A DNA stretch of 64,000 bases, from NCBI GenBank assembly GCA_965204465.1, contig OZ241995.1, forward strand, positions 1,087,839-1,151,838, in the 5' to 3' direction. Each line of letters begins with the position of its first letter. The stretch's first letter is position 1. Shown piece after piece: positions 5,062 through 58,793 of the stretch. This DNA comes from Leptospiria bacterium. Its GTDB lineage: Bacteria; Spirochaetota; Leptospiria; Turneriellales; CBDBES01. The notes below the pieces were generated by a model that was not told where the DNA came from, did not search any database, and was given only the letters and a program-made list of their open reading frames with translations. Both the position numbers and the translations under genes were made by a program.

Positions 5062-5100
5062 GTTAAAGTTTACTACCAAAAAATTTAAGGAGTTCATTAA

Positions 5101-6114: not shown

Positions 6115-6120
6115 TCTATA

Positions 6121-6639: not shown

Positions 6640-6748
6640 AAGACACTCCAAATGTTCTTGCTCTTTAAATACTTTCACCTATCCTATTTTGCAGAATTAA
6701 ATAAGAATATGAATTAAGAACCAGACCGTTATTGGTATTCTAATAAAG

Positions 6749-31948: not shown

Positions 31949-32254
31949 TTGTTCACCTAAAGGGCACTGCGCTGGCAGTTGCACTGCTAGCTTAGCATTT
32001 CTTTTCACCCAAGGGCACTGCGCTGGCAGTTGCACTGCTAGCTTAGCATTTCTTTTCACCCAAGGGCACTGCGCTGGCAGTTATACTGCTAGCTTAGCAT
32101 TTCTTTTCACCCAAGGGCACTGCGCTAGCAGTTGTACTGCCAGCTTAGCATTTCTTTTCACCCAAGGGCACTGCGCTAGCAGTTGCACTGCTAGCTTAGC
32201 ATTTCTTTTCACCCAAGGGCACTGCGCTAGCAGTTGCACTGCTAGCTTAGCATT
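31949..32254 (+). repeat. Array R1: about 6 tandem copies of a 51-bp GC-rich hairpin unit
   Basis: Unit TTCACCCAAGGGCACTGCGCTGGCAGTTGCACTGCTAGCTTAGCATTTCTT. Unit starts at 31960, 32011, 32062, 32113, 32164 and 32215 give a strict 51-bp period with no spacers. Confidence 0.95.
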
Positions 32255-32278
32255 CTATTCTCTTACTAACCTCTCTCT

Positions 32279-32503
32279 GTGTCATTCACCAGAGAAGAAA
32301 TAGACGAATTCTACAATACATTCAAAGAAGCCTATCTGGCTCTAGCCAGCGGAGTAAAATCCTATACGATAAACACAGGAACCAGTAGCAGGTCCGTAAG
32401 CAGAGCAGATTTACCAGAAATAAAAAAGGAAATGATGTACTGGTCTAAAATGCGCAATCCGTCAGGTGACATAGAAACCATTCAGATAGAACCCAAACTA
32501 TAA
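32279..32503 (+). CDS. Lambda gpW-like head-tail joining protein homolog (copy 1)
   Basis: 74 aa, GTG start 24 nt after R1. TREE...EAYLALASGVKSYTINTGTSSRSVSRADLPEIKKEM aligns with lambda gpW (TRQEE...[31 protein letters not shown]). The stop overlaps the next ATG (TAATG), as at phage W-B junctions. Confidence 0.7.
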   Translation: MSFTREEIDEFYNTFKEAYLALASGVKSYTINTGTSSRSVSRADLPEIKKEMMYWSKMRNPSGDIETIQIEPKL

Positions 32504-33072
32504 TGATCATTACGCATATAAAGACATACTGGAATAGATTAAGGAATATAGTAACAGGATATTATGACGCAGGACGCCGTGACATACCCTCTGTAAAGTC
32601 ATGGCAACCCAAACTATTGACCGCAGATGAAGAATACATCAAAGACTATGATCTCATAAGAGCAAGAAGTAGGGACTTAGTGCGTAACAACCATCTGAAT
32701 GTAAATAAGATCAAGGGCCAGTTATTTAGTTTTTTGCGATCAGAGGACAAGAATATGGCTGGTTATATGTCCTTTCCTGTTCAATACACACAGGAATATT
32801 ATAAGCAGCTTACGGTAGAGACATTGATCAAATCCAAAGACAGGCATGGTTTTTATCGCTATGAGTACAAAAAAGTAAGAGACAGGAATGAGGTTTTAGA
32901 TTGTACAGTATATGCAAGAGCCGCATCGATCCACCTGGGAGTCGATCATTTTACAGACCTTCAGTGGGACTATCTTAAAAAGAAAATCTTAGAAAGTAAA
33001 ACAGGATCCCTATATCATAAAAGACAAAGTTCTGCACGTGTTCAGGTCATCTCTGAAGGGATTGACGTATAA
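32503..33072 (+). CDS. Chimeric ORF: lambda-family portal N-terminal segment fused to terminase large subunit (GpA) C-terminal segment (copy 1, intact frame)
   Basis: aa ~20-70: YYDAGRRD..SVKSWQP..TADEE...IRARSRDLVRNN matches portal gpB (LRSWNP...ARADDLVRNN). aa ~85-175: GYMSFPVQYTQEYYKQLTVE...RDRNEVLDCTVYARAASIHLG matches the gpA C-terminus (GAVHFP...QQLTAEE...RRNEALDCFVYALAAL). Confidence 0.65.
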   Translation: MIITHIKTYWNRLRNIVTGYYDAGRRDIPSVKSWQPKLLTADEEYIKDYDLIRARSRDLVRNNHLNVNKIKGQLFSFLRSEDKNMAGYMSFPVQYTQEYYKQLTVETLIKSKDRHGFYRYEYKKVRDRNEVLDCTVYARAASIHLGVDHFTDLQWDYLKKKILESKTGSLYHKRQSSARVQVISEGIDV

Positions 33073-33400
33073 CAGACAAAGAGTCATAAAACAGGCAAAA
33101 CCATTGATTTTCTGGAAAAAAATCCTCACCAATTGGCACCAGATCAATTCTTTTTTGCATTAAGGTATAACTGGGTTAGAACGAAAACAGAATGCGACAC
33201 AGGGATTTTTTATTTTTTTATTAACCATCATATGTATTTATTGAAGGTGTAGGAAGTTTTTTTAAATTTTTTTGTTGACAGAATATCAAATAATAATCAT
33301 TGACTTGGATTAGACAAGCTAGCCCTAAAATTAATAAGGCTTTTGTCTTACTCTAATATCAAATAAACAAAAAGCAACAGAGTTCAGGAGGATAGTTTTT
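33073..33400 (+). promoter_or_regulatory. Conserved upstream block U1 (promoter/leader module shared by the cassettes)
   Basis: Near-identical to 35681-36026, 39340-39781 and 44401-44579. Contains TTGACA (33275-33280) and TTGACT (33300-33305) -35-like hexamers; the -10 is ambiguous. Has one 51-bp leader unit and AGGAGG (33386-33391) 9 nt before the ATG. Confidence 0.4.
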
Positions 33401-34510
33401 ATGAACAATAGTAAAAAATTTATGCCCCAAAAGTGGTTGATCATATTTTTGATGCCGTTCACTCTTTTGAGGCTTGGTTGTAGCGCTGACTCAGCTAAAT
33501 CTACGGAAAGTCCAATTAATCTGGCTCCTCCGGTTCATGAGACCATACAGGTCACCTCTCCTCCCGACGGTAGTTCCTTTGCAAAGGGAGAGAATATCGT
33601 CTTTAAATTGCAGAAAAAAGATGACAGGGATATTCGAGGGTTGAATGTTTATTTAGATGATAAAAAGGTAGATGTTAGGCATGGTGAGATGTTACCTGAA
33701 GTTTCACCAGGTGAGCATAAACTAAGGTTGGCCATAAACAACAAAACGTTAGATGAGGTGAATTTTACTGTAAAGAAATTGCCTGATGAATCAATGGAAT
33801 ATACGTTCAAATTCAAATTCAGTTACTTAAGAAGGCCATTCGATAATCTAAACTATCATCTGTTTCCAAGTGCCTGCTTACCTAGAGAAGGTATTCAAAC
33901 GAGGCTCACAAAGCAAGATGATTCCGAATGGAAAGACTTTTTACCCAATATATTCACCATGAGCAAGGAATGGAATGCCTTAACTGCTTCCTGGCAAGAG
34001 GGATGGAAAAAATATAGGCACCCTCCCTGTCTCTTGAATAGGGATAAGGCGCATGCAAATGAAGTCTTTATTGATTTCCATATAAAGGCAAACAGAAACA
34101 AGCATCTTTCTAAACCAATACGAATCAATTTTGAATATGACAGAGCATCGCTTCGTCTTAGAACCAGGCTTTTGATCCGTTCTATTTCAGAAATGCGAGA
34201 AATTCTGGGTATTAGGGACAGTATACCCAGAAGCTATCGCATAGATTTCTCAAAAAAGAGCATTCTGATTCTAAATGGTGTGCGTCTTGCCGCCACATCC
34301 GCGTTCTCGGGTTGTAATATAGTTTCTATCTATGACAACCTTGCTGCTATTTACGAATGGAATAATAAACTATACGTTATGACAAAGGCCGTAAAAGAAG
34401 AAGTATTATATGGCGTAGGCTTTTGTTTTGCAATGCTCGAAGGCTTCCATACCATCCTCATTCTTGATTACGCCAAAGACCTTCCTGTAGAGTTTATAGA
34501 GATTCCGTAG
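33401..34510 (+). CDS. Island lipoprotein paralog P1
   Basis: Signal peptide with lipobox-like LLRLGC. Ig-like N-terminal domain (VTSPPDGSSFAKGENIVF). Conserved core ACLP.EGIQTRLTKQDDSEWKDFLPNIFTMSKEWNALT. Family C-terminus DYAKDLPVEFIEIP. Strong RBS. Confidence 0.85.
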   Translation: MNNSKKFMPQKWLIIFLMPFTLLRLGCSADSAKSTESPINLAPPVHETIQVTSPPDGSSFAKGENIVFKLQKKDDRDIRGLNVYLDDKKVDVRHGEMLPEVSPGEHKLRLAINNKTLDEVNFTVKKLPDESMEYTFKFKFSYLRRPFDNLNYHLFPSACLPREGIQTRLTKQDDSEWKDFLPNIFTMSKEWNALTASWQEGWKKYRHPPCLLNRDKAHANEVFIDFHIKANRNKHLSKPIRINFEYDRASLRLRTRLLIRSISEMREILGIRDSIPRSYRIDFSKKSILILNGVRLAATSAFSGCNIVSIYDNLAAIYEWNNKLYVMTKAVKEEVLYGVGFCFAMLEGFHTILILDYAKDLPVEFIEIP

Positions 34511-34604
34511 TCTGTATTTCTCTGGAAAAGCCTACCATTGTATTTTGATCAAAGACAAGCCTAAAAATAGTGGCTTGGCAAGAGAGGATGATCCTGATCA
34601 CCCC

Positions 34605-34862
34605 TTGTTCACCCAAAGGGCACTGCACTGGCGGTTATACTGCCAGCTTAGCATTTCTTTTCACCCAGAGGGCACTGCGCTGGCAGTTGCACTGCTAGCT
34701 TAGCATTTCTTTTCACCCAAGGGCACTGCGCTGGCAGTTGCACTGCTAGCTTAGCATTTCTTTTCACCCAAGGGCACTGCGCTGGCAGTTGCACTGCTAG
34801 CTTAGCATTTCTTTTCACCCAAGGGCACTGCGCTAGCAGTTGCACTGCTAGCTTAGCATTTC
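34605..34862 (+). repeat. Array R2: about 5 copies of the 51-bp unit
   Basis: Same unit and orientation as R1. The first unit is the variant ...GGCACTGCACTGGCGGTTATACTGCC... Confidence 0.95.
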
Positions 34863-34884
34863 TTTCTCTTACTAACCTCTCTCT

Positions 34885-35109
34885 GTGTCATTCACCAGAG
34901 AAGAAATAGACGAATTCTACAATACATTCAAAGAAGCCTATCTGGCCTTAGCCAGCGGAGTAAAATCCTATACCATAAACACAGGAACCAGTAGCAGATC
35001 CGTAAACAGAGCGGATCTTCCAGAAATAAAAAAGGAAATGATGTACTGGTCTAAAATGCGCAATCCGTCAGGTGACATAGAAGCCATTCAGATAGAACCC
35101 AAACTATAA
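34885..35109 (+). CDS. gpW-like protein homolog (copy 2)
   Basis: Differs from copy 1 at 2 of 74 residues (S40N, T65A). Confidence 0.7.
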   Translation: MSFTREEIDEFYNTFKEAYLALASGVKSYTINTGTSSRSVNRADLPEIKKEMMYWSKMRNPSGDIEAIQIEPKL

Positions 35110-35680
35110 TGATCATTGCACATAAAATAAAGACATACTGGAATAGATTAAGGAATATAGTAACAGGATATTATGACGCAGGGCGTCGTGACTACCCTCT
35201 GTAAAATCATGGCAACCAAAACTATTGACCGCAGATGAAGAATACATAAAAGACTATGATCTCATAAGAGCAAGAAGCAGGGACTTAGTGCGTAACAACC
35301 ATCTGAATGTAAATAAGATCAAGGGCCAGTTATTTAGTTTTTTGCGATCAGAGGACAAGAATATGGCTGGTTATATGTCCTTTCCTGTTCAATACACACA
35401 GGAATATTATAAGCAGCTTACAGCAGAGACATTGATCAAATCCAAAGACAGGCATGGTTTCTATCGCTATGAGTACAAAAAAGTAAGAGACAGGAATGAG
35501 GTTTTAGATTGTACAGTATATGCAAGAGCCGCATCGATCCACCTGGGAGTCGATTATTTTACAGACCTTCAGTGGGACTATCTTAAAAAGAAAATCTTAG
35601 AAAGTAAAACAGGATCCCTATATCATGAAAGACAAAGTTCTGCACGTGTTCAGGTCATCTCTGAAGGGATTGACGTATAA
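35109..35680 (+). pseudogene. Portal-N::terminase-C chimeric ORF, copy 2, frameshifted
   Basis: A 1-nt deletion relative to copy 1 (GACATACCC becomes GACTACCC) gives TAA at 35202-35204. The track ORF 35225..35680 is the downstream remainder. Confidence 0.7.
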
Positions 35681-36026
35681 CAGACAAAGAGTCATAAAAC
35701 AGGCAAAACCATTGATTTTCTGGAAAAAAATCCTCACCAATTGGCACCAGATCAATTCTTTTTTGCATTAAGGTAACTGGGTTAGAACGAAAACAGAATG
35801 CGACACAGGGATTTTTTATTTTTTTATTAACCATCATATGTATTTATTGAAGGTGTAGGAAATTTTTTTTAATTTTTTTTACTTTTTTTAAATTTTTTTG
35901 TTGACAGAATATCAAATAATAATCATTGACTTGGAAAAGACAGGCTAGCCCTAAAATTAATAAGGCTTTTGTCTTACTCTAATAGCAAATAAATAAAAAG
36001 CAACAGAGTTCAGGAGGATAGTTTTT
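35681..36026 (+). promoter_or_regulatory. Conserved upstream block U2
   Basis: Same block as U1. TTGACA at 35901-35906, an extra T-rich duplication, and AGGAGG-N9-ATG. Confidence 0.4.
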
Positions 36027-37097
36027 ATGAACAACAGTAAAGAATTTATGCCCCAAAAGTGGTTGATCGTATTTTTGGTGCCTCTTGCTCTTTTATGGCT
36101 TGGTTGCACTGATGAAGCCAATACCCCCAATGAGACGAATAAAACTCAAAGGGAAGCGGGCATTAAATCCCCTGCAAATGGCAGTTCTTTTTCAAAAGGA
36201 GAAGATATTTCATTTCAATTAAGTAAAACGGATTTGGATATGCAAGGCATAGATCTTTATCTGGATAGGCGAAAAATTGATATTCATCAAGGGGATATGC
36301 TACCTGAACTTTCAGTAGGTGAGCATAAACTAAGGTTGGACATAAGCAACAAAACGGTGGATGAGGTGATTTTTACTGTAAAGAAATTGCCTGATGAATC
36401 AATGGAATATATGTTCAGGTTCAAATTCAGTTCTTTAAAGGGGGATGGTTACCTATATCCAAGTGCCTGTTTACCTAAGAAAGGTATTCAAACGAGGCTC
36501 ACAAAACAAGATGATTCCGAATGGAAAGATTTTTTACCCAATATATTCACCATGAGCAAGGAATGGAATGCCCTGACTGCTTCCTGGCAAGAGGGAAGGG
36601 GAGAATATGGCCCCCCTCCCTGTCTCTTGAATAGGGATAAGGTGCATGCAAATGAAGTTTTTATTGACTTCTATATAAAGGCAAACAGAAGCAAGCATCT
36701 TTCTAAACCAATAAGGATCAATTTTGAATCTAACAGGAGTTCACTTGGTCGTAGAGCCGGGCTTTTGATCCGCTCTATTTCAGAAATGCGAGAAATTCTG
36801 GGTATTAGGGACAGTATACCCAGAAGCTATCGCATAGATTTCTCAAAAAAGAGTATTCTGACTCTAAGTTATTTTCGTGTCGTACCCGAGTCAGGAGGTT
36901 GTCATCTAACTTCTATTTATGACAACCTTACTGCCATTTACGAATGGAATAATAAATTGTACGTTATGACGAAGGCCGTAACAAATGAAATCGTATATCC
37001 TGAAGGCCCTTGTTTTGCAATTTTGACAGGCTTCAGTAGAAGCCTAATTCTTGATTACGCCAAAGACCTTCCTGTAGAGTTTATAGAGATTCCGTAG
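36027..37097 (+). CDS. Island lipoprotein paralog P2 (patchwork of P4-like and P1-like segments)
   Basis: The signal peptide plus TDEANTPNETNKTQREAGIKSPANG... matches P4. VKKLPDESMEY and LLIRSISEMREILGIRDSIPRSYRIDF match P1. Confidence 0.85.
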   Translation: MNNSKEFMPQKWLIVFLVPLALLWLGCTDEANTPNETNKTQREAGIKSPANGSSFSKGEDISFQLSKTDLDMQGIDLYLDRRKIDIHQGDMLPELSVGEHKLRLDISNKTVDEVIFTVKKLPDESMEYMFRFKFSSLKGDGYLYPSACLPKKGIQTRLTKQDDSEWKDFLPNIFTMSKEWNALTASWQEGRGEYGPPPCLLNRDKVHANEVFIDFYIKANRSKHLSKPIRINFESNRSSLGRRAGLLIRSISEMREILGIRDSIPRSYRIDFSKKSILTLSYFRVVPESGGCHLTSIYDNLTAIYEWNNKLYVMTKAVTNEIVYPEGPCFAILTGFSRSLILDYAKDLPVEFIEIP

Positions 37098-37148
37098 CCC
37101 GTATTTTGATCAAAGACAAGCCTAAAAATAGTGGCTTGGCAAGAGAGG

Positions 37149-38225
37149 ATGATTTTAATAAAGAAGATGATACGAAATATTCTGTTTACCTTTCTGTTAC
37201 TACCTTATTTTTTAGGGTTTAGTTGCACAGACAACTCCAATATTGCTGATAACAATTCAGACGAATATGATGTGGTTCCTCAAAGGGAAGCGGGCATTAA
37301 ATCCCCTGCAAATGGTAGTTCTTTTTCAAAAGGAGAAGATATTTCATTTCAATTAAGTAAAACGGATTTGGATATGCAAGGCATAGATCTTTATCTGGAT
37401 AGACGAAAAATTGATATTCATCAAGGGGATATGCTACCTGAACTTTCAGTAGGTGAGCATAAACTAAGGTTGGACATAAACAACAAAACGGTGGATGAGG
37501 TAACCTTTAATGTAACAGAAGCGGAATATACGTTCAGATTCAAATTCAGTTATTTAAATGCGGATGGTGGCCTATATCCAAGTGCCTGTTTACCTAAGAA
37601 AGGTATTCAAACGAGGCTCACAAAACAAGATGATTCCGAATGGAAAGATTTTTTGCCAAATATATTCACCATGAGTAAGGAATGGAATGCCTTAACTACT
37701 TCCTGGCAAGAGGGAAGGGAAGAATATGGCCCCCCTCCCTGTCTCTTGAATGAAGATAAGGCGCATGCAAATGAAGTTTTTATTGACTTCTATATAAAGG
37801 CAAATAAAAGTAAGCATCTTTCTAAGTCAATATGGATCAATTTTGAATATCGTAGAATATCGCGTTATAATAATTTTAAGGCCGGGCTTTTGATCCGTTC
37901 TCTTTCAGAAATGCAAGAACTTCTGGGTTATCGTAACAGGATACCCGAAAGATATCGTATAGATTTTTCAAAAAAGAGTATTTTGACTCTAAAGGGCCCT
38001 ACTATTGATGGATGCGAAATCAGTGGTTGTGGTTTCGCTTCTGCTTATGACATCCTTGCCGCCATTTACGAGTGGAATAATAAATTATACATTATGACAA
38101 AAGTCGCACCAAAAGAAATATTATATCCCGTGGGTCCTTGTACTGCATGCTTGCAAGGTTCCAATGCCATCCTAATTCTGGATTACGCCAAAGACCTTCC
38201 CTTAGAGTTCATAGAGATTCCGTAG
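37149..38225 (+). CDS. Island lipoprotein paralog P3 (own signal peptide, no upstream U block)
   Basis: MILIKKMIRNILFTFLLLPYFLGFSC signal/lipobox. The start is ambiguous (37131 GTG, 37149 or 37167 ATG). The 5' end is built on a truncated copy of the conserved 3' flank of P2. From QREAGIK onward it is almost identical to P4. Confidence 0.8.
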   Translation: MILIKKMIRNILFTFLLLPYFLGFSCTDNSNIADNNSDEYDVVPQREAGIKSPANGSSFSKGEDISFQLSKTDLDMQGIDLYLDRRKIDIHQGDMLPELSVGEHKLRLDINNKTVDEVTFNVTEAEYTFRFKFSYLNADGGLYPSACLPKKGIQTRLTKQDDSEWKDFLPNIFTMSKEWNALTTSWQEGREEYGPPPCLLNEDKAHANEVFIDFYIKANKSKHLSKSIWINFEYRRISRYNNFKAGLLIRSLSEMQELLGYRNRIPERYRIDFSKKSILTLKGPTIDGCEISGCGFASAYDILAAIYEWNNKLYIMTKVAPKEILYPVGPCTACLQGSNAILILDYAKDLPLEFIEIP

Positions 38226-38294
38226 CCCGTATTTTGATCAAAGACAAGCCTAAAAATAGTGGCTTGGCAAGAGAGGATGATCCTGATTCACCCC

Positions 38295-38524
38295 TTGTTC
38301 ACCCAAAGGACACTGCACTGGCAGTTGCACTGCTAGCTTAGCATTTCTTTTCACCCAAGGGCACTGCGCTAGCAGTTGCACTGCTAGCTTAGCATTTCTT
38401 TTCATTTCTTAATGCTGCTTCTTAGCTAATGTTAGCATTCTTATTTGTTCACCCAAGGGCACTGCACTAGCAGTTGCACTGCTAGTTTAGTATTTCTTAA
38501 TGAAATTTTTATTTACAGCATTCT
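38295..38524 (+). repeat. Array R3: about 3 degenerate copies of the 51-bp unit, interrupted by AT-rich insertions
   Basis: Two good units (38295-38400), then interrupted or decayed units ending in ...AGCATTCTATTCTCTTAC, as in R1. Confidence 0.85.
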
Positions 38525-38546
38525 ATTCTCTTACTAACCTCTCTCT

Positions 38547-38771
38547 GTGTCATTCACCAGAGAAGAAATAGACGAATTCTACAATACATTCAAAGAAGCC
38601 TATCTGGCTCTAGCCAGCGGAGTAAAATCCTATACGATAAACACCGGAACCAGTAGCAGGTCCGTAAGCAGAGCAGATTTACCAGAAATAAAAAAGGAAA
38701 TGATGTACTGGTCTAAAATGCGCAATCCGTCAGGTGACATAGAAACCATTCAGATAGAACCCAAACTATAA
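38547..38771 (+). CDS. gpW-like protein homolog (copy 3)
   Basis: Protein identical to copy 1. Confidence 0.7.
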   Translation: MSFTREEIDEFYNTFKEAYLALASGVKSYTINTGTSSRSVSRADLPEIKKEMMYWSKMRNPSGDIETIQIEPKL

Positions 38772-39339
38772 TGATCATTACGCATATAAAGACATACTGG
38801 AATAGATTAAGGAATATAGTAACAGGATATTATGACGCAGGACGTCGTGACTACCCTCTGTAAAGTCATGGCAACCCAAACTATTGACCGCAGATGAAGA
38901 ATACATCAAAGACTATGATCTCATAAGAGCAAGAAGTAGGGACTTAGTGCGTAACAACCATCTGAATGTAAATAAGATCAAGGGCCAGTTATTTAGTTTT
39001 TTGCGATCAGAGGACAAGAATATGGCTGGTTATATGTCCTTTCCTGTTCAATACACACAGGAATATTATAAGCAGCTTACGGTAGAGACATTGATCAAAT
39101 CCAAAGACAGGCATGGTTTTTATCGCTATGAGTACAAAAAAGTAAGAGACAGGAATGAGGTTTTAGATTGTACAGTATATGCAAGAGCCGCATCGATCCA
39201 CCTGGGAGTCGATCATTTTACAGACCTTCAGTGGGACTATCTTAAAAAGAAAATCTTAGAAAGTAAAACAGGATCCCTATATCATGAAAGACAAAGTTCT
39301 GCACGTGTTCAGGTCATCTCTGAAGGGATTGACGTATAA
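38771..39339 (+). pseudogene. Portal-N::terminase-C chimeric ORF, copy 3, frameshifted
   Basis: Same 1-nt deletion as copy 2, giving TAA at 38861-38863. The remainder is ORF 38884..39339. Confidence 0.7.
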
Positions 39340-39781
39340 CAGACAAAGAGTCATAAAACAGGCAAAACCATTGATTTTCTGGAAAAAAATCCTCACCAAT
39401 TGGCACCAGATCAATTCTTTTTTGCATTAAGGTAACTGGGTTAGAACGAAAACAGAATGCGACACAGGGGATTTTTTATTTTTTTATTAACCATCATATG
39501 TATTTATTGAAGATGTAGGAAATTTTTTTAAATTTTTTTGTTGACAGAATATCAAATAATAATCATTGACTTGGAAAAGACAGGCTAGCCCTAAAATTAA
39601 TAAGGCTTTTGTCTTACTCTAATAGCAAATAAATAAAAGGCTTATTAAAAATAGGGCTTTTGTCTTACTCTAATATCAAATAAATAAAAGACTTATTAAA
39701 AATAAGGCTTTTGTCTTACTCTAATAGCACATAAATAAAAGGCTGACTAAAAAGTAGAAGATATATTAGGAGGATATACTT
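39340..39781 (+). promoter_or_regulatory. Conserved upstream block U3 with a triplicated leader unit
   Basis: TTGACA at 39541-39546. Three 51-bp leader units (39602, 39653, 39704). AGGAGG lies before ATG 39782. Confidence 0.4.
39602..39754 (+). repeat. Leader repeat: 3 x 51 bp, AT-rich
   Basis: Unit (A/G)AGGCTTTTGTCTTACTCTAATA(G/T)CA(A/C)ATAAATAAAAG(G/A)CTTATTAAAAAT. There is one copy in U1 and U2, three here, and two at 44464-44565. Confidence 0.85.
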
Positions 39782-40258
39782 ATGAGATTAAGTTTAAATT
39801 ATGGAAGATTTTCATTTAAAAATTTATTTTTTGTCGCAGTATTAGGTTTGACTATCACCTTTTCTGCATGTATACAGAGTGGGGATACTTTGGGGAATTA
39901 CTCAGATAGCAAAGCTGACATTACATTGATTGATAAAAGTAGTCGGCTATTAAGCGAATCTTTTGTATCTTTGCCTCCTGATGATGTCAATGAAGATGAA
40001 GCAATTCTGATACAAGAGAATAAAGTCGAGCATGCAGAACCTGATTATAATCTGGTAAAAAATTCAAATGGTCTAAACGGAGTAGAAGGGTGGAGGGTAA
40101 CCAAGGAAAAGGGAAATGGTTTTTTTTATCAGGGAAAAAACTCTTCTAATCTGGAATCTGGCAAGTACTTTGGCACATCTTATGGATGGAGTGTCAAAAG
40201 ACAGATCATTGATTTGGAAGCGGAGTGCGTTATGTTGTCTTTAAGCATGCAGGCGTAA
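39782..40258 (+). pseudogene. Lipoprotein signal plus the N-terminal half of an FBA (F-box-associated, glycan-binding type) domain; disrupted 5' part of the protease gene
   Basis: Signal peptide with lipobox-like TFSAC. NLVKNSNGLNGVEGW...GKYFGTSYGWSVKRQIIDLEAE parallels FBXO2 NLLRNPCGEEDLEGW...KKYFASSFEWCRKAQVIDLQAEG. The frame ends 34 nt into the next ORF. Confidence 0.6.
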
Positions 40259-42150
40259 GCAGCAGAGAAGAACCGCAAGAAGATTATTACGGCACACGAA
40301 TGAGGAATGCTACATTAAACATAAGTTTTCCACAAGAATTTTCTATGAAAGAAAGCTCTGTTATTGCAGAAGCTCTGCAAAACAAATTAAATGAGATGTC
40401 AGATCAAGAGATGATACCCGTTTCGGTTCTATGCAGGGATCCGCTGGTTAATGAAAATGATCTTTCCGCCTTTTCCGCTGGTTTCGAGGTGGACCAGGGC
40501 AATATCAAAAATGTTCAACTGGCTTCAAGTGATGAAGAGACGGTATCTGATCTAGAGCTGGTTTCTACTTTAGAGGAACAAGTAGAGATCATGAACCAAA
40601 AAGTCCTTTCTCAGATAAATCAAATGAAAAAGAAAAAAATTGAGGCTTATAGAGAAGATATTGATGAACTCACAGAGATGACGAATATAGATATAATGGG
40701 TCGTTCCTCTGGTGTAGCAGAATCCATTGGATTCGTTAAAGTTGAATTGAGCAAGGCAGAGATAGAAACCATAGCTCAATATGAAAATATCGTACAGACA
40801 ATAGATGTGCAATCAGAAGCAGACAATGACTTGGATTCTGCCTATACAGAGACAAAAATGGACCAGGCCCATCATGTCGAACATGATTCTGCCAGACAAA
40901 CAGGTTCGGGAGTCAATGTCTATATGTCTGAGGCGGATAATAACTGCTTTGACCCAAACACATATAATTTTGGGACCTGGATTCCAGGATATATTCCAGA
41001 TGTTGCATCAACAGGAAGGTATTGGGAGGATCGCCCTACTAGTGATCATGCTACACAAGTTGCTCAATCTCTAGTAGTTACTGCTCCTCATATTACTTTA
41101 TATTGTTCTACTAAGAGTTATCTATTCTCTCGCAGTTTAAAAGATCGGATACATATCATCAACTATTCTTGGACGGATCCCGGGTATGAAGGGGGTGCTG
41201 CTAATACTACTAGCTGGTTACCGCAAGACTCCTTATCCGATAGGTATGTTTGGAGAGATCGGATAGCTATATTTAAGAGTGCTGGTAATAATTGTAATAT
41301 TCCTGAGGGACACTGTCAAGTTACTTCCCCTGGAAAGGCGCACAATGTTATCACGGTTGGTGCTTATGATGATAGAACAGATAGGATGGGTACTTTTTCC
41401 CGTACAGTTGATCCAGAAACAAATGCGATCAAACCTGAGATCGTAGCCCCTGGTGTTTCTCTCCGATTTCCTGCTTCCGTTAATGCAAGTGAAGTCACAT
41501 CTTGGAATAATCATCTTCTTAGCGGTACTAGCTATTCCACTCCTCTGGCGGCCGGTATGGCTGCCTCTGTTACATCAAGATATACTCTACTCAAAAAGCA
41601 ACCTCATTTGATCAAGGCCAGTATGCTTGCTATGTCCGCCAAAGACATTCAAAGCGGGACTAGTGCCGATGGTGTAGGTGCCATTCAATGGAATGAGGAT
41701 GGAAATTATCGTTACTGGTCGAACTATAATAATAATTTTCTGGTAACAGGCGGCTGGAAATTGATTCATGAATATAATGTTTATAGAAACAACAAAAAAG
41801 TCAGGGTCGTCATATCATGGCTCAATGATGTAAATAAATGTGACAGTAGCACAGCTAAATTATGTATGGATATAGATTTAAAAGTTCATGGTCCTAATAA
41901 TGAATATATAGATCATGACTACCGGAATAGCCATGATGATGAATATGCTCCAAATAACATAACGAACAATAACTGGAGAATGGTAGAGTTCACGACAAGA
42001 AAAACAGGTAAATATAAGGTCTATGTATGGCGCCGTAGTAACTGGCATACAAAGACGAAAAGATGCTTTCTGTGGATTTGTTGGGGGCATAAGAAGCATT
42101 ACAGTAAAGTCAACCTGGGTCTTAGAATTGCCTACATTGATTATGATTAA
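40225..42150 (+). CDS. Subtilisin-like (S8) serine protease with an FBA C-terminal remnant, an I9-like propeptide and a C-terminal beta-sandwich domain
   Basis: The N-terminus VRYVVFKHAG...DYYGTRMRNATLNI matches the FBA C-terminus (VRFVRFEHGG..WFGARVTNSSV). Candidate Asp segment GSGVNVYMSEAD, His in SDHATQVAQ, Asn in FKSAGNN, Ser in SGTSYSTPLAAGMAA. No signal peptide in this frame. Confidence 0.8.
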   Translation: MRYVVFKHAGVSSREEPQEDYYGTRMRNATLNISFPQEFSMKESSVIAEALQNKLNEMSDQEMIPVSVLCRDPLVNENDLSAFSAGFEVDQGNIKNVQLASSDEETVSDLELVSTLEEQVEIMNQKVLSQINQMKKKKIEAYREDIDELTEMTNIDIMGRSSGVAESIGFVKVELSKAEIETIAQYENIVQTIDVQSEADNDLDSAYTETKMDQAHHVEHDSARQTGSGVNVYMSEADNNCFDPNTYNFGTWIPGYIPDVASTGRYWEDRPTSDHATQVAQSLVVTAPHITLYCSTKSYLFSRSLKDRIHIINYSWTDPGYEGGAANTTSWLPQDSLSDRYVWRDRIAIFKSAGNNCNIPEGHCQVTSPGKAHNVITVGAYDDRTDRMGTFSRTVDPETNAIKPEIVAPGVSLRFPASVNASEVTSWNNHLLSGTSYSTPLAAGMAASVTSRYTLLKKQPHLIKASMLAMSAKDIQSGTSADGVGAIQWNEDGNYRYWSNYNNNFLVTGGWKLIHEYNVYRNNKKVRVVISWLNDVNKCDSSTAKLCMDIDLKVHGPNNEYIDHDYRNSHDDEYAPNNITNNNWRMVEFTTRKTGKYKVYVWRRSNWHTKTKRCFLWICWGHKKHYSKVNLGLRIAYIDYD

Positions 42151-42170
42151 AGAATCTGGTTTTTAAAACA

Positions 42171-42635
42171 ATGACCATTTTTACTAAAAATATTTTTTTA
42201 TTTTATTTTACCTTTAATAGTATTCTATGCTCGGAAATTGTAGATGATCAAACATCTAGATCAGATAAAGGTCTTCCTGTCTTCATTGAAGAGATCATTG
42301 CCCCTGAACAGGTTTCCTCTTCTGAAACAAGTTTTGATATTCGATTGAAAGGCAATACTTCTAAATCTGATATAAATTGCTCAAAAATTCAATACAATGC
42401 TACAGTGACGGAAACCAGTCTAAATTTATCCGTGGAAAGAGTTGCTCCGCCGCCCTTTCGGCTAGACGATGGTTCTATTTCTACTGCTTGCAATGATCAA
42501 GTAGTCCCTTTTGGTGAAAGGATTTATACGGTAAAGGCAAATCCTCATTTTGCTTTGGGTGACTTTTTGATCACTATTCAAAATCCAGATTATCAAGGTG
42601 ATGATCTTCAAAAAGTAGTGAAGATCGTCGAATAA
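42171..42635 (+). CDS. Small secreted/lipoprotein S1 downstream of the protease
   Basis: Hydrophobic N-terminus ending in SILC. Paralog of S2, sharing the blocks SSSETSFDIRLKGNTSKSDINC and VPFGER.YTVKANP.FALGDF.ITIQNPD..GDDLQKVVKIVE. Confidence 0.65.
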   Translation: MTIFTKNIFLFYFTFNSILCSEIVDDQTSRSDKGLPVFIEEIIAPEQVSSSETSFDIRLKGNTSKSDINCSKIQYNATVTETSLNLSVERVAPPPFRLDDGSISTACNDQVVPFGERIYTVKANPHFALGDFLITIQNPDYQGDDLQKVVKIVE

Positions 42636-42711
42636 TGATCTTTCAAAAGAAACAGAATTTAATTGAAAGAAATCCATTCAATTCATCTATGATGGATCAA
42701 ATATCCCCCCC

Positions 42712-42813
42712 TTGTTCACCCAAATGGCACTGCACTAGCAGTTGCACTGCCAGCTTAGCATTTCTTTTCACCCAAGGGCACTGCGCTGGCAGTTGCACTG
42801 CCAGCTTAGCATT
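42712..42813 (+). repeat. Array R4: 2 copies of the 51-bp unit, cut mid-unit
   Basis: Ends ...GCCAGCTTAGCATT and is joined directly to AATATAATGTTTATAG, which equals 41771 onward. Confidence 0.9.
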
Positions 42814-43220
42814 AATATAATGTTTATAGAAACAACAAAAAAATCAGGGTCGTCATATCATGGCTCAATGATGTAAATAAATGTGACAGTAGCACAGCTA
42901 AATTATGTATGGATTTAGATTTAAAAGTTCATGGTCCTAATAATGAATATATAGATCATGACTACCGGAATAGCCATGATGATGTATATGCTCCAAATAA
43001 CATAACGAACAATAACTGGAGAATGGTAGAGTTCACGACAAGAAAAACAGGTAAATATAAGATTTATGTATGGCGCCGTAGTAACCGGTATTTATCAGTG
43101 AGGCTATGCAGCCCATTTTTTTCTAGTCGGCCTTTTTTTGTGGGGTGTCGTTCTACAGAAATCAGGGTCTACAATAAAGTCAACCTGGGTCTTAGAATTG
43201 CCTACATTGATTATGATTAA
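42814..43220 (+). pseudogene. Duplicated 3' fragment of the S8 protease gene (no start; corresponds to 41771-42150)
   Basis: In-frame YNVYRNNKKIRVVISWLNDVNKCDSSTAKLCMDLDLKVHGPNN... is preceded by TAA. It is identical to the parent except for a replaced in-frame segment (43086-43175 versus about 42043-42105). Confidence 0.85.
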
Positions 43221-43632
43221 GTGGATCATTTTTTCTTCTTTAATTTTTGTTTCTTCTTCATGCTCTGAGTCTCCTGAGTCTGAGACTCAATATAGCATTA
43301 AGAATATCTATATTGAAGAAGTGGATGTTCCCAGAGAAGTTTCCTCTTCTGAAACAAGTTTTGATATTCGATTGAAAGGCAATACTTCTAAATCTGATAT
43401 AAATTGCGAAGAAATCCGATATGAGTCTATAATAAGCAAAACAAGTCTGAAATTAGCAGTAAAAGGATATAGTTATCCTAGACTATGTAGTGCATTGATA
43501 GTTCCCTTTGGCGAAAGGGTTTATACGGTAAAGGCAAATCCTTATTTTGCTCTGGGTGATTTTATGATCACCATTCAAAATCCAGATCGTGCAGGTGATG
43601 ATCTTCAAAAAGTAGTGAAGATCGTCGAATAA
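43213..43632 (+). CDS. Small lipoprotein S2 (paralog of S1)
   Basis: MIKWIIFSSLIFVSSSC signal/lipobox. The ATG overlaps the stop of the protease fragment. The track start at 43138 is an upstream read-in. Confidence 0.65.
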   Translation: MIKWIIFSSLIFVSSSCSESPESETQYSIKNIYIEEVDVPREVSSSETSFDIRLKGNTSKSDINCEEIRYESIISKTSLKLAVKGYSYPRLCSALIVPFGERVYTVKANPYFALGDFMITIQNPDRAGDDLQKVVKIVE

Positions 43633-43708
43633 TGATCTTTCAAAAGAAACAGAATTTAATTAAAATAAATCCATTCAATTCATCTATGATGGATCAAATA
43701 TCCCCCCC

Positions 43709-44035
43709 TTGTTCACCCAAATGGCACTGCACTAGCAGTTGCACTGCCAGCTTAGCATTTCTTTTCACCAAAAGGGCACTGCGCTGGCAGTTGCACTGCT
43801 AGCTTAGCATTTCTTTTCACCAAAAGGGCACTGCGCTGGCAGTTGCACTGCTAGCTTAGCATTTCTTTTCACCCAAGGGCACTGCGCTGGCAGTTGTACT
43901 GCCAGCTTAGCATTTCTTTTCACCCAAGGGCACTGCGCTAGCAGTTGCACTACTAGCTTAGCATTTCTTTTCACCCAAGGGCACTGCACTGGCGGTTATA
44001 CTGCCAGTTTAGCATTTCTTTTCACCCAGAGGGCA
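43709..44035 (+). repeat. Array R5: about 6.4 copies of the 51-bp unit
   Basis: Same unit and orientation. Point variants between units, e.g. CACCAAAAGGG, TTGTACTGCC, TTGCACTACT. Confidence 0.95.
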
Positions 44036-44400
44036 TAGAAAAATGGAACACCATTCTATTTTCTGTTTTTTCTTCTTCCTAATTTACTCTTGAGTAAGAC
44101 GAACGGTTGGGAACGCAGGCAAGGATGCCTGCGAAATGGAGCGTCTTTGCCATGGATGCAAAACATGGATGTTTTGCAAGGCTGCCTGACCTTACCCCAA
44201 GCACCTGACATCCTATCAGGTCGCTTGCCCCTACAAAACATCCGTGTTTTGTAGGTTACAGGATGTAACCCGTCCAGCCGCTTGTGCAGACGAAGTCTGT
44301 GAACTTCCATGTGAAAAAAGAAAGAAAAATAGCTATTCTTTTTACACAAAAAGACCTGTGCCCGTAGGGTGAAATGGGTAGCAAAGTAGCAGGTTTTTTT
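44036..44400 (+). other. GC-rich multi-hairpin element, copy A (possible structured RNA or MITE-like element)
   Basis: A series of perfect hairpins: CGCAGGCA-AGGA-TGCCTGCG, GCAAAACAT-GG-ATGTTTTGC, ACCTGA-CATCCTA-TCAGGT, CTACAAAACA-TCCG-TGTTTTGTAG and GGTTACA-GGA-TGTAACC. It sits where the gpW module sits in cassettes 1-3. Confidence 0.6.
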
Positions 44401-44579
44401 TGTTGACAGAATATCAAATAATAATCATTGACTTGGAAAAGACAGGCTAGCCCTAAAATTAATAAGGCTTTTGTCTTACTCTAATAGCACATAAATAAAA
44501 GGCTTATTAAAAATAGGGCTTTTGTCTTACTCTAATATCAAATAAACAAAAAGCAACAGAGTTTAGGAGGATAGTCTTT
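44401..44579 (+). promoter_or_regulatory. Conserved upstream block U4 (3' part only) with a duplicated leader unit
   Basis: Starts at TGTTGACAGAATATC (TTGACA 44403-44408). Two 51-bp leader units (44464, 44515). TAGGAGG-N9-ATG. Confidence 0.4.
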
Positions 44580-45644
44580 ATGAACAATAGTAAAAAATTT
44601 ACATTCCAAAAGTGGTTGATCATATTTTTGATGCCTCTTGCTCTTTTATGGCTTGGTTGCACTGATGAAGCCAATACCCCCAATGAGACCAATAAAACTC
44701 AAAGGGAAGCGGGCATTAAATCCCCTGCAAATGGCAGTTCTTTTTCAAAAGGAGAAGATATTTCATTTCAATTAAGTAAAACGGATTTGGATATGCAAGG
44801 CATAGATCTTTATCTGGATAGGCGAAAAATTGATATTCGTCAAGGGGATATGCTACCTGAACTTTCAGTAGGTGAGCATAAACTAAGGTTGGACATAAAC
44901 AACAAAACGGTGGATGAGGTAACCTTTAATGTAACAGAAGCGGAATATACGTTCAGATTCAAATTCAGTTATTTAAATGCGGATGGTGGCCTATATCCAA
45001 GTGCCTGTTTACCTAAGAAAGGTATTCAAACGAGGCTCACAAAACAAGATGATTCCGAATGGAAAGATTTTTTGCCAAATATATTCACCATGAGTAAGGA
45101 ATGGAATGCCTTAACTACTTCCTGGCAAGAGGGAAGGGAAGAATATGGCCCCCCTCCCTGTCTCTTGAATGAAGATAAGGCGCATGCAAATGAAGTTTTT
45201 ATTGACTTCTATATAAAGGCAAATAAAAGTAAGCATCTTTCTAAACCAATATGGATCAATTTTGAATTTCATAGAGAACTGCTTAGTAATAATTTTAAGG
45301 CCGGGCTTTTGATCCGTTCTCTCTCGGAAATGCAAGAACTTCTGGGTTATCGTAACAGGATACCCGAAAGATATCGTATAGATTTTTCAAAAAAGAGTAT
45401 TCTGACTCTAAAGGGCCCTACTATTGATGGATGCGAAATCAGTGGTTGTGGTTTCGCTTCTGCTTATGACATCCTTGCCGCCATTTACGAGTGGAATAAT
45501 AAATTATACATTATGACAAAAGTCGCACCAAAAGAAATATTATATCCCGTGGGTCCTTGTGCTGCATGCTTGCAAGGTTCCAATGCCATCCTAATTCTCG
45601 ATTACGCCAAAGACCTTCCTGTAGAGTTTATAGAGATTCCGTAG
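44580..45644 (+). CDS. Island lipoprotein paralog P4
   Basis: The N-terminal ~115 aa match P2 and the rest matches P3. Lipobox-like LLWLGC. C-terminus DYAKDLPVEFIEIP. Confidence 0.85.
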   Translation: MNNSKKFTFQKWLIIFLMPLALLWLGCTDEANTPNETNKTQREAGIKSPANGSSFSKGEDISFQLSKTDLDMQGIDLYLDRRKIDIRQGDMLPELSVGEHKLRLDINNKTVDEVTFNVTEAEYTFRFKFSYLNADGGLYPSACLPKKGIQTRLTKQDDSEWKDFLPNIFTMSKEWNALTTSWQEGREEYGPPPCLLNEDKAHANEVFIDFYIKANKSKHLSKPIWINFEFHRELLSNNFKAGLLIRSLSEMQELLGYRNRIPERYRIDFSKKSILTLKGPTIDGCEISGCGFASAYDILAAIYEWNNKLYIMTKVAPKEILYPVGPCAACLQGSNAILILDYAKDLPVEFIEIP

Positions 45645-45713
45645 TCTGTATTTTGATCAAAGACAAGCCTAGGAATAGTGGCTTGGCAAGAGAGGATGAT
45701 CCTGATTCACCCC

Positions 45714-45783
45714 TTGTTCACCCAAAGGGCACTGCACTGGCAGTTGCACTGCCAGCTTAGCATTTCTTTTCACCCAGAGGGCA
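45714..45783 (+). repeat. Array R6: about 1.4 copies of the 51-bp unit
   Basis: Has the same start (CCCTTGTTCACCCAAAGGGCACTGCACTGG) and the same exit junction (CACCCAGAGGGCATAGAAAAATGG) as R5. Confidence 0.85.
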
Positions 45784-46264
45784 TAGAAAAATGGAACACC
45801 ATTCTATTTTCTGTTTTTTCTTCTTCCTAATTTACTCTTGAGTAAGACGAACGGTTGGGAACGCAGGCAAGGATGCCTGCGAAATGGAGCGTCTTTGCCA
45901 TGGATGCAAAACATGGATGTTTTGCAAGGCTGGGGATTGGGTTACAGGATGTAACCACCCAGCCTAACTTCTATGGCAAAGTAGCGGGTTTTTTTCACCC
46001 TACGGCACAGGTCTTTGTTTCTTTCTTTTTTTTACATGTAAAACATGGATGTTTTACATGGCTGCCTGACCTTACCCCAAGCACCTGACATCCTATCAGG
46101 TCGCTTGCCCCTACAAAACATCCGTGTTTTGTAGGTTACAGGATGTAACCCGTCCAGCCGCTTGTGCAGACGAAGTCTGTGAACTTCCATGTGAAAAAAG
46201 AAAGAAAAATAGCTATTCTTTTTACACAAAAAGACCTGTGCCCGTAGGGTGAAATGGGTAGCAA
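45784..46264 (+). other. GC-rich multi-hairpin element, copy B, with a ~130-bp internal partial inverted duplication
   Basis: Equals copy A plus an insert at 45933-46062. That insert contains CACCCTACGGCACAGGTCTTT...ACATG, the inverted repeat of CATGT...AAAGACCTGTGCCCGTAGGGTG at 46188-46250. Confidence 0.6.
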
Positions 46265-46524
46265 TACAGGAGAAGACTAAAAAAATAAAAAAGATCTGCA
46301 CCCGTAAATGAGAAGAAAAGTGGAATGCTATTCTAATTATAAGATAAAGTATAACAAATTGCTAGCCTTTTGGGGAGATTACTTGTGCCCACTGCAAATT
46401 ATTTTTTTACTTAAAAATTTTCCTCTGGAATTTTATCTCTTAACTAATTCTATTAGAAAAAAGAATTAGAAAAAGTAGAATAAATTTTTTGTTGAAACAA
46501 AAATATAATGTGACATAATAATTT

Positions 46525-46868
46525 CGGAGACGGCGGGATTTGAACCCGCGTCCTGTCATGCAATCGAAAGCTTTCTACATGTTTAGTTTGTATTTTATTT
46601 TAGAGAAGACCATCTCTACAAACAAAGTAAGGACTTCCTTAGCAAGAATGTCTCGGTTTTATACCCTTGCCATATAAAACCCACTCTCTATAAAAGTTAG
46701 CCATTATATCCGCCTAGAGAGAAACAGATATAACAGCGCTTGGCAAATTATGCAGCCAAAGCGTAATTTAAGTTGTCGTCGTTTATTATAGACTTCCCTT
46801 TTTAGAAGAGGGCGCTTCACATGCTTTTCTAACCATTGGATCATGACAGTCGAAGCCAATTCGTCCCC
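46525..46868 (-). ncRNA. ssrA: tmRNA (SsrA)
   Basis: The minus strand begins GGGGACGAATTGGCTTCGAC and ends GCGGGTTCAAATCCCGCCGTCTCC (tRNA-like T-arm and acceptor). The tag frame reads ...N-D-D-N-L-N-Y-A-L-A-A-stop (stop at 46748-46750). No CCA is encoded. Confidence 0.9.
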
Positions 46869-57773: not shown

Positions 57774-58793
57774 TCAAGCATTTTTTTTATTATGGAAATC
57801 TTTTTCTTGATTGAAGGAATTTACAACCCCTATCACTCTTTTACAACTGCCCAGTGGTTTCACTGTATAGTCTAAAAAAACCTGATTGAAGATTTTATAA
57901 TCCCGACTGCTTTCGTTGCCTTCAATAAATAAAATTTTATTCCGAGAGCCTAAAATCTCCAGATACAACCTTTCTGGTATATCTTCTTTGGGTTTCAATA
58001 TTTCATAATCCCATCTACCATCTCCTGAATAAGACTTTACCCATATCTTTTCATTTTTTTGTCGAGTAAATGCGAAATCAATATCATGAGTTAAATACAC
58101 GAACATACAATCTTCTCGATGGCTTTCTAGTTGATCATACAAATTCTTTACCATTGCACGATGTAAATGAGTTTCAGGTTCATCAATAATTATTATTCGG
58201 TTTGGTTTGAGACAGACTACCTGCCCGATAATATAAAAAATGTATCGTTCACCATCGCTCATTTCAGATCCAGAATAGCCTTCAGATAGTGATACTTTTA
58301 ATCCTTCTAAAACTAACTTTCTGTGAGTTATTATAGATCCCCAAATACGTTGAACGACATCTAATTTTGTCTCAGGTACCTTATTATTATCAGTTTGATT
58401 ATTCATTTTTGTTTTCCTATATTTTATAGAAACGCTTGCTTCTTTGGCAAAAAGTAATTTTAATAAATCTTCATAATCATCCATAGAGTGTTTATGTGGA
58501 AGATGTTGATCCCGTGGCGAACGATTGCCGTAGCTAGCTTGCGAAATATTCCCTGAAAAAAAATCTTTTTCTGCTTCTTCTGGGGATTTCAAACTAAGAG
58601 CTTCAGGAATAACTAATAATCTTTGCGCAGGGATAAAAAAAGAATTGTTCTTATTCAGCGCCTTTAGTTGACTAGCGAATCTGGTTTTACCTGAACCATT
58701 TGCGCCAATAATGACAATTCTGTTACATTCTATATAATTTACTTCTGAATTAGTATCCTGTAATTTTGGGGGAAGATTTACACGCATAATCAT
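57774..58793 (-). CDS. Compact ABC-type ATPase fused to a DUF4435/Toprim-like domain (OLD-family-like)
   Basis: IIGANGSGKTRFA Walker A, SGSEMSDGERY signature-like motif, IIIIDEPETHLH Walker B, and C-terminal ILFIEGNESSRDYKIF (DUF4435-like). The ATG overlaps the stop of the RM gene (TAATG). Confidence 0.7.
   Translation of the reverse strand: MIMRVNLPPKLQDTNSEVNYIECNRIVIIGANGSGKTRFASQLKALNKNNSFFIPAQRLLVIPEALSLKSPEEAEKDFFSGNISQASYGNRSPRDQHLPHKHSMDDYEDLLKLLFAKEASVSIKYRKTKMNNQTDNNKVPETKLDVVQRIWGSIITHRKLVLEGLKVSLSEGYSGSEMSDGERYIFYIIGQVVCLKPNRIIIIDEPETHLHRAMVKNLYDQLESHREDCMFVYLTHDIDFAFTRQKNEKIWVKSYSGDGRWDYEILKPKEDIPERLYLEILGSRNKILFIEGNESSRDYKIFNQVFLDYTVKPLGSCKRVIGVVNSFNQEKDFHNKKNA

Follow-up and report, generated by a model that had tools for sequence, protein, structure and literature searches.

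The window analysed here, a 64-kb stretch (64,000 nucleotides) of contig OZ241995.1 from a Leptospiria bacterium, carries two copies of a GC-rich hairpin element in the spacers of a tandem array of lipoprotein genes: copy A at 44020-44401 and copy B at 45768-46264, both given here on the + strand. The stems of the element's hairpins all differ in sequence while the loop, CA(N)GGAUG, is common to every one of them, a pattern that is the hairpin motif of CsrA/RsmA. CsrA is a global post-transcriptional regulator. We tentatively interpret the element as a mosaic of TwoAYGGAY-like modules that would most likely act as a CsrA-binding RNA, of a kind not yet described in the relatives of Leptospira.

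The GGA loop motif

Seven distinct hairpins of the element hold GGA in loops of 3-7 nt. Along copy A, H1 (44114-44133, + strand) reads CGCAGGCA-agga-TGCCTGCG and is followed on the same strand by the overlapping pair H1.5/H2 (44146-44178, with H2 at 44157-44178), in which TTTGC-catggat-GCAAA overlaps TGCAAAACA-tgga-TGTTTTGCA. H3 (44203-44221) and H4 (44230-44255) have their GGA loops on the - strand, where they read as H3', CAAGCgACCTGA-taggatg-TCAGGTGCTTG, and H4', CCTACAAAACA-cgga-TGTTTTGTAGG; together they make up an inverted module, M2 (44196-44255, H4' plus H3'). H5 (44254-44270, + strand), GGTTACA-gga-TGTAACC, is the tip of a second hairpin whose outer stem is GGCTG...CAGCC. Copy B has the same set and in addition H5' (45940-45956) and H2' (46035-46060). 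The five perfect stems named in the original prediction are present in both copies; the constant GGA loop had been missed there.

The loops of H2 and H2' are AUGGAU, which is an AYGGAY sequence, and that of H4' on the - strand is ACGGAU; H5 has CAGGAU, H1 AAGGAU and H3' UAGGAU. The + strand offers four GGA loops in copy A (three of them independent) and six in copy B (five independent). Among perfect hairpins with a stem of at least 6, the loop contains GGA or TCC in 12 of the 14 within the element compared with 25 of 156 in the rest of the window (Fisher p=1.5e-7), a count in which copies A and B are not independent and which by distinct hairpins is six of seven. Nearly all GGA-loop hairpins of the 64 kb that have GC-containing stems of at least 6 bp lie in the two copies, the exceptions being five AT-rich or coding hairpins. 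The CsrA consensus from systematic evolution of ligands by exponential enrichment (SELEX), RUACARGGAUGU with its GGA placed in the loop of a hairpin (quoted in PMC8668096), is matched at 10 of 12 positions by H2 and by H4'. As a linear motif, RTACARGGATGT with two mismatches allowed, the CsrA consensus is not enriched across the window (19 found, 15 expected), and five of the 19 matches fall in the two copies.

A constant loop on variable stems indicates that the loop is recognised in a folded single strand, since a double-stranded operator would not yield such a pattern.

Layout and folding of the two copies

In a pairwise alignment that runs from the last partial unit of a 51-bp repeat array, TTTTCACCCAGAGGGCATAGAAAAATGG, to GGGTGAAATGGGTAGCAA, copies A and B are identical base for base apart from one block of 132 bp, present in copy B only (45928-46059). 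GGCTG direct repeats stand at both bounds of the block, so its placement is ambiguous by 5 nt, and copy A equals copy B minus the DNA between the two repeats. The original prediction had described two copies starting from an identical junction and an extra ~130 bp at 45933-46062, both of which hold, the latter within the 5-nt ambiguity.

The order within copy A is box TTTCACCCAGAGGGCATAG, AT-rich leader, GC-rich hairpin core, AT-rich right arm, inverted box, tail GCAAAGTAGCAGG and a run of eight T. The left box (44020-44038) is the outermost 5' arm; it has the sequence of the first 16-19 nt of the array unit, and is in effect the start of one further unit, and is 79% complementary to 44356-44374, its non-Watson-Crick positions on the + strand being two G.U and two mismatches. 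Inside it, the AT-rich left arm CTATTTTCTGTTTTTTCTTC (44056-44075) is 75% complementary to 44313-44332, and an inner closing stem pairs CGAACGGTTGG (44100-44110) with CCAGCCGCTTG (44274-44284), enclosing all five hairpins in the minimum free energy (MFE) fold. The right arm (44313-44374) consists of AT-rich GAAAAAAGAAAGAAAAATAG followed by the inverted box CTGTGCCCGTAGGGTGAAA. Longer nested outer stems thus occur in copy A than the P1 stem described below. Its core (44100-44290) has a G+C content of 52.9% against 35.2% for the window, as the earlier description of a GC-rich element implies, and the four open reading frames (ORFs) across the element, which had been judged implausible, have no Pfam match.

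Copy B is made of a short unit followed by a second unit framed by inverted repeats. The short unit (45845-45995) begins with H1 (45862-45881), after which an 11-bp stem, P1, predicted in both the MFE and the centroid fold (CTTTGCCATGG 45893-45903 with CTATGGCAAAG 45971-45981), closes over a pair of hairpins: H2 (45905-45926), a linker AAG, and a second hairpin (45928-45964) tipped by H5'. All GGA loops of this unit are on the + strand, and it ends in a T-run (45989-45995). In the second unit (45993-46254) the inverted repeats 45993-46031 and 46194-46254 frame H2', H3 (46083-46101), H4 (46110-46135) and H5 (46134-46150). Its arms 45993-46016 and 46230-46254 consist of two perfect 13-nt blocks with a 1-nt offset, and the AT-rich arms 46013-46031 and 46194-46212 are 89% complementary. 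The inverted copy of the right end and the nested inverted duplication that had been noticed in copy B are therefore real, and the duplication is better described as module shuffling, in which a short unit of H1, H2 and H5' is followed by an inverted-repeat-framed one.

The element is predicted to fold far more stably than shuffled sequence: the z-score is -6.05 for the + strand of copy A, -3.8 for its - strand and -6.9 for the short unit, whose fold is P1, hairpin, AAG, hairpin, preceded by H1.

TwoAYGGAY and the H2-bearing family

TwoAYGGAY RNAs (RF01731; Weinberg et al. 2010) have two AYGGAY loops and a stem P1 that is often very long (PMC2864571), and Gardner & Eldai proposed that they are CsrA-binding small RNAs (sRNAs; PMC4333381). 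The 20-mer of H2, GCAAAACATGGATGTTTTGC, recurs letter for letter as hairpin 1 of TwoAYGGAY-like elements from other phyla. An exact scan of a genome collection found it at 84 loci, where by our own estimate about four were expected. Most of these are in Luteimonas, Marinobacter and other Gammaproteobacteria, with one in a Legionellaceae metagenome-assembled genome (MAG) and two in another Leptospirales MAG; a few apparently isolated chance matches are in Uhrbacteria, Verrucomicrobiae, Flavobacteriaceae and Marinarcus.

At the gammaproteobacterial and Leptospirales loci H2 is followed on the same strand by a second hairpin, whose loop is GGA or GGA-like unless replaced by an insert, and a long stem that differs between copies and stays complementary encloses both hairpins. 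One of these loci, L070, scores above the Rfam threshold for RF01731 (46 bits). In the closing stems of the wider family the GGA strand has 108 G.T against 67 A.C, and in the cleaner alignments 41 against 11 (our own tally). Tolerance of G.T over A.C on that strand indicates that one strand is functional, as RNA or as single-stranded DNA.

The short unit shares with TwoAYGGAY two adjacent hairpins with GGA loops on one strand, an AAG joint and a closing P1, and its H2 is letter for letter the first hairpin of L070. It differs in that the second loop is CAGGAU rather than AYGGAY and that an extra GGA hairpin, H1, stands ahead of the unit. The window element also nests an inverted two-hairpin module in the second hairpin, is fixed in a lipoprotein cassette array, and belongs to a host order, Leptospirales, outside the range described for the family (human gut, Gammaproteobacteria, Clostridiales); only the core aligns, at 17 bits. 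A weaker likeness is to the reverse strand of Bacillaceae-1 RNA (RF01690), which has two hairpins with CsrA-type loops (PMC4333381): the - strand of the window element aligns to that family at 16 bits, with a threshold of 35, and taxon and context differ. Of the identities offered in the original prediction, a structured non-coding RNA fits best.

Two groups of H2 loci have features of their own. In nine Marinobacter loci (L009, L015, L043, L047, L055, L061, L075, L081 and L082) the H2-bearing element occupies one conserved position, just upstream of and divergent from a gene start, with a closing stem of ~28 bp that varies between species and keeps its complementarity, an arrangement that resembles an orthologous TwoAYGGAY-like RNA gene scoring under the Rfam threshold. 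In many Luteimonas copies (at L008, L012, L014, L026, L071 and other loci) an insert of ~90 nt, made of two GC-rich palindromes and starting GTGAGTACGG, takes the place of the second hairpin's loop (CAGG^ATG or CATGG^), a nesting of palindromic units that targets the loop.

No match was found in viral contigs with H2 or the 51-bp repeat, or in metagenomes with an H2...H3 or an H1 pattern, and copy B had no blastn match in the plasmid and phage collections.

Related elements in the host lineage

SecY and SppA homologues point to a Leptospirales host, the named relatives being in Leptospiraceae and Turneriella; they speak against an Amoebophilus-like member of the Bacteroidota, which the G+C content and an F-box-associated domain might have suggested. 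Contig L088, from the same lineage, matches the window at 98-99% identity over copy A and most of the other segments that the two share. Its lipoprotein cassettes number five, with an element ahead of each, in four structural types: short (H1, H2, H5), short plus inverted M2, type A and type B. The element at L088 7436-7650 has the layout of the copy B short unit. From these variants, the window copies appear to be two members of a set produced by recombination among modules. The seven near-identical copies of the window and L088 share one left junction and the same cassette slot.

Contig L089 is more diverged (72-84% identity over most aligned segments) and has two tandem units with seven GGA hairpins, all on one strand. 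There the stem of H1 is kept with the loop tgga, and M2 lies on the same strand as H1; relative to L089, the leader-H1-H2 part of the window element (M1) has the opposite orientation to M2, to the right arm and to the U-block, the conserved block ahead of the lipoprotein gene. At the H2 position the whole stem has been swapped (CTTTGCCA/TGGCAAAG vs TATCGACA/TGTCGATA) with the loop UGGA retained. Across three sequences 5 of the 23 pairs of M2 are compensatory, changed on both sides, and 95.7% of cells pair. Another Leptospirales MAG (L029) shares H2 and the H3 14-mer TGACATCCTATCAG, in the same order and orientation.

Between its diverged hairpin element and the lipoprotein U-block, L089 also has an rve-family (IS3/IS481-like) transposase gene (2047-2895).

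A putative CsrA-binding RNA

Like the Csr/Rsm sponge sRNAs, the element has several hairpin-loop GGA motifs on one transcript, the predicted + strand RNA, with spacings that a CsrA dimer could bridge and loops that resemble the SELEX consensus. Unlike them, it has some of its sites on the other strand and shows no sequence homology to them, and no GacA/UvrY-type promoter or clear terminator was found for it. CsrA sites are usually paired (PMC4383904). In Leptospira csrA lies in an flgN-flgK-flgL-fliW-csrA operon and its product requires GGA to bind, and no csrB or csrC homologues are known there (PMC8668096). The sponge RNAs CsrB/CsrC and RsmX/RsmY/RsmZ are known experimentally in Gammaproteobacteria only (PMC4333381); for spirochaetes there is one unverified prediction of a CsrA-binding RNA, in L. 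biflexa (PMC4863578).

The modules are short hairpins with unrelated stems and CA(N)GGAUG loops, paired and closed by longer stems. In the mechanism that we propose, the cassette spacer would be transcribed on the + strand, either because transcription of the upstream gene reads on through the 51-bp array or from an unrecognised promoter, and the RNA would fold to expose three (copy A) to five (copy B) independent GGA loops, 14-45 nt apart. CsrA dimers would then bind pairs of loops, and the RNA might either titrate CsrA, in the manner of CsrB/RsmZ, or recruit it to the lipoprotein transcripts. The structural differences between copies would have arisen by recombination at, and insertion into, near-identical palindromic hairpins. 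Transcription, the active strand and CsrA binding are our inferences.

A number of observations weigh against this interpretation. No known Rfam family reaches threshold at the element; over the whole window the gathering threshold yields the transfer-messenger RNA (tmRNA) and one tRNA only, and a search of a 2.9-kb region at E<=10 gave chance matches of microRNA or small nucleolar RNA type only. TwoAYGGAY itself appears in a 221-nt search alone, at 17.1 bits (E 3.7; gathering score 43), in a local alignment of 45905-45964 to the two-hairpin core of RF01731 (model positions 49-107). Two of the five hairpins of copy A show CAUCC rather than GGA on the + strand, so that any single transcript would use part of the sites only, and the density of GGA is below that of CsrB/RsmZ. 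A consensus scan found no convincing promoter upstream and no canonical intrinsic terminator at either copy; the element thus differs from Csr/Rsm sponge genes, which have their own promoter and Rho-independent terminator. A T-run follows the element, but it also precedes TTGACA in cassettes that have no element and may therefore be part of the next promoter. No CsrA signature was found in a six-frame translation of the window, and FliW, not RNAs, is thought to control CsrA in spirochaetes, as in Firmicutes (PMC8668096). Finally, nesting and inversion of modules, and the occurrence of multiple copies in other genomes, are typical of selfish palindromic repeats.

A broader version of the proposal, which we consider unlikely, is that pairs of GGA-loop hairpins are portable CsrA-site modules, which become inserted in one another's loops and have passed between Gammaproteobacteria and Leptospirales. 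In spirochaetes the window element would then be the first RNA known to antagonise or recruit CsrA, wired into a tandem, fast-rearranging family of surface lipoproteins, and the availability of CsrA would be coupled to lipoprotein expression. A GGA-hairpin RNA in Leptospirales would extend the proposal of CsrA binding by TwoAYGGAY RNAs, and the loop insertions of hairpin modules in three lineages suggest a possible route for the growth of multi-site decoy RNAs; the finding would be ordinary if the element is an inert palindromic repeat.

Alternative explanations

The strongest competitor, possible though less probable than a CsrA-binding RNA, is that the element is a mosaic palindromic repeat of the foldback type or of the kind of repetitive extragenic palindromic (REP) sequences and bacterial interspersed mosaic elements (BIMEs), with no CsrA-related role in this genome. 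It would have spread and rearranged as DNA, by loop insertion, template switching or recombination between near-identical palindromes, and its effects would be generic at most, for example a block to 3' exonucleases or a transcriptional pause between one cassette gene and the next. Tens of related copies per genome are indeed found in Luteimonas and in one gammaproteobacterial MAG. In three independent comparisons a hairpin module or palindrome stands in or beside a GGA loop: L029 against L074, among the Luteimonas copies, and at P1 of the window, which in L089 is a simple hairpin. These insertions resemble BIME-type mosaic growth, which is our main reason for keeping a selfish repeat under consideration; the inversion of M2 within a + strand unit, the long terminal inverted repeats of the second unit of copy B and the four L088 variants point the same way.

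Like REP/BIME sequences and the REP doublets known as REPINs, the element consists of short extragenic palindromes in alternating orientation, nested as a mosaic between co-directional genes. Unlike them, it has neither a conserved GTAG foot on each palindrome (CTAC...GTAG occurs in H4 only) nor a flanked gene for a REP-associated tyrosine transposase (RAYT), and it is the loop that is conserved, not the stem. A pure DNA-level repeat leaves unexplained the GGAUG loops on unrelated stems, the tolerance of G.T over A.C on the GGA strand, and the recovery of H2-bearing elements essentially from Gammaproteobacteria and Leptospirales, both of which encode CsrA. All known copies in the lineage share one slot and one left junction and no target-site duplication was seen, which gives no sign of transposition to new sites; a shared left junction is what segmental duplication would produce. 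The repeat and CsrA interpretations are compatible with each other.

A role of the elements as sites of recombination or inversion, at which the lipoprotein cassettes would be shuffled to vary the surface through crossovers at the TTCACCC-N3-GGGCA boxes or the hairpins, is improbable; a recombination site remains a candidate because the hairpins are visibly rearrangement breakpoints. Every 51-bp unit starts with the box, which is found again in inverted orientation at the element's right end and in direct orientation within copy B; a deletion bounded by short repeats distinguishes copy A from copy B, comparison of the window with L089 shows M1 turned round relative to M2 and the U-block, and the window and L088 differ in cassette content. 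Such rearrangement is expected at any repeat cluster, however, and a shuffling role does not explain the conserved GGA loops. No recombinase family was found among the scanned ORFs of the island and its flanks, the neighbouring ORF at 30547-31431 being DUF488, and copy B and the fourth L088 copy have the same orientation, with no on/off inversion seen.

Slightly less probable still is a passive transcription insulator, whose stable hairpins would stop or stabilise the upstream transcript just ahead of the next promoter. Its place after one gene's stop and before the next gene's TTGACA, the very stable structure and the T-run after the element would suit such a role. Against it stand the failure to detect a canonical terminator, the T-run of element-free cassettes, the unexplained loop conservation, and the phage gene remnant that occupies the same slot in cassettes 1-3, which shows that the slot has no need of hairpins.

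It is very improbable that the element is a classic miniature inverted-repeat transposable element (MITE) or the end of a mobile element of IS200/IS605 type or mobilised by a RAYT (HUH/Y1); an HUH-type end and a likeness to a MITE had been raised in the original prediction. In favour are the consecutive hairpins, the CTAC...GTAG of H4, the terminal inverted repeats of the second unit of copy B and the one Y1_Tnp-like domain of the window (31.9 bits, 58793-60688). Against these, GTAG is confined to one hairpin, neither tnpA nor tnpB adjoins the element, no direct repeat flanks the second unit of copy B, no match was found in the plasmid and phage collections, cassette duplication accounts for the copies, and the Y1_Tnp-like domain belongs to a split type IIG gene ~12.5 kb from copy B and ~14.4 kb from copy A, with no GGA hairpins nearby. 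The comparison to an a1/a2-flanked, retron-like RNA likewise fell away, because no reverse-transcriptase family was found among the part of the window ORFs that was scanned.

The cassette array and its surroundings

The region 31946-46264 is an array of tandem cassettes, each in the order of one to six 51-bp repeats, a slot, a U-block (TTGACA and a ribosome-binding site) and a lipoprotein gene of ~360 codons. The repeat, TTCACCCAAGGGCACTGCGCTGGCAGTTGCACTGCTAGCTTAGCATTTCTT, forms arrays at 31946-32258, 34608-34865, 38298-38498, 42715-42817, 43712-44035 and 45717-45784, of which the fifth (6.3 units) leads into copy A and the last (1.3 units) into copy B. Each unit has a 9-bp hairpin, GCTGGCAGT/ACTGCTAGC, and the right end of the hairpin element repeats the unit's first 16 nt in inverted orientation. 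The stem position pair 22/36 of the array hairpin is polymorphic, with all four allele combinations, which looks like recombination between variants rather than compensatory change. Two known kinds of array were considered and rejected: integron attC sites, as IntI is absent and the cassettes have their 51-bp units in tandem instead of a single one each, and clustered regularly interspaced short palindromic repeats (CRISPR), as the arrays have no spacers.

The position of the hairpin element is constant, between the end of one lipoprotein cassette and the U-block. Copy A runs directly into its U-block, TTTTTTTTGTTGACA, as had been noted; this block (44402-44579, + strand) has TTGACA at 44403-44408 and the ribosome-binding site AGGAGG, and the lipoprotein gene 44580-45644 comes after it. 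In two cassettes the slot is occupied by the hairpin element and in three others by a triplicated phage remnant (32279-33072, 34885-35680 and 38547-39339), in agreement with the earlier remark that the element takes the place of a gpW module. The remnant encodes a 74-amino acid ORF with a weak DUF6148 (gpW-like) match under the Pfam cut-off, and a second ORF, in which the C-terminal 95 residues of a terminase gpA nuclease domain occur together with the initial residues of a portal of lambda type.

Four paralogous lipoprotein genes (33401-34510, 36027-37097, 37131-38225 and 44580-45644) have signal peptides ending in LWLGC and among them one weak Big_7 match. Their homologues are on only a handful of contigs of the host lineage, five of them in tandem in L088. 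Within the U-block there is a second, unrelated 51-bp repeat, AATAAGGCTTTTGTCTTACTCTAATAG... (39599-39753 and 44436-44560), with an inverted repeat of its own, AGCCCTAAAATTAATAAGGCTTTT/AAAAGGCTTATTAAAAATAGGGCT. The 3' end of a subtilase gene and the 154-amino acid ORF that follows it are duplicated in the next cassette.

A tmRNA gene lies on the - strand at 46525-46868. No second copy of its 3' end was found in the window, and so there is no sign of a classical ssrA-integrated island; in the relatives L085-L087 both a tmRNA gene and the island are absent from the sppA loci. The interval from copy B to the tmRNA 3' end (46265-46524) contains a degenerate repeat of the right-arm/leader junction, AAAAGATCTGCACCCGTAAATGAGAAGAAAAGTGGAATGCTATTCTAAT, that looks like the stump of a further element copy.

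At 58793-62149 (- strand), where local G+C is 41-46%, two adjacent ORFs resemble a split type IIG restriction-modification enzyme. One has an HSDR_N domain, the other an Eco57I methylase, a TaqI_C domain and, at the N-terminus, the IS200-like Y1 transposase domain.

An ORF with a eukaryote-like F-box-associated (FBA) domain, followed by a subtilase, is found in 39782-42150 and 42810-43632. In L086, a relative of the host with 57% SppA identity, genes for an ankyrin-repeat protein and a thiol-activated cytolysin lie near sppA (1206-2435 and 4990-6723). Taken with the FBA-domain ORF of the window, these genes hint at a host-associated lifestyle for this Leptospirales lineage.

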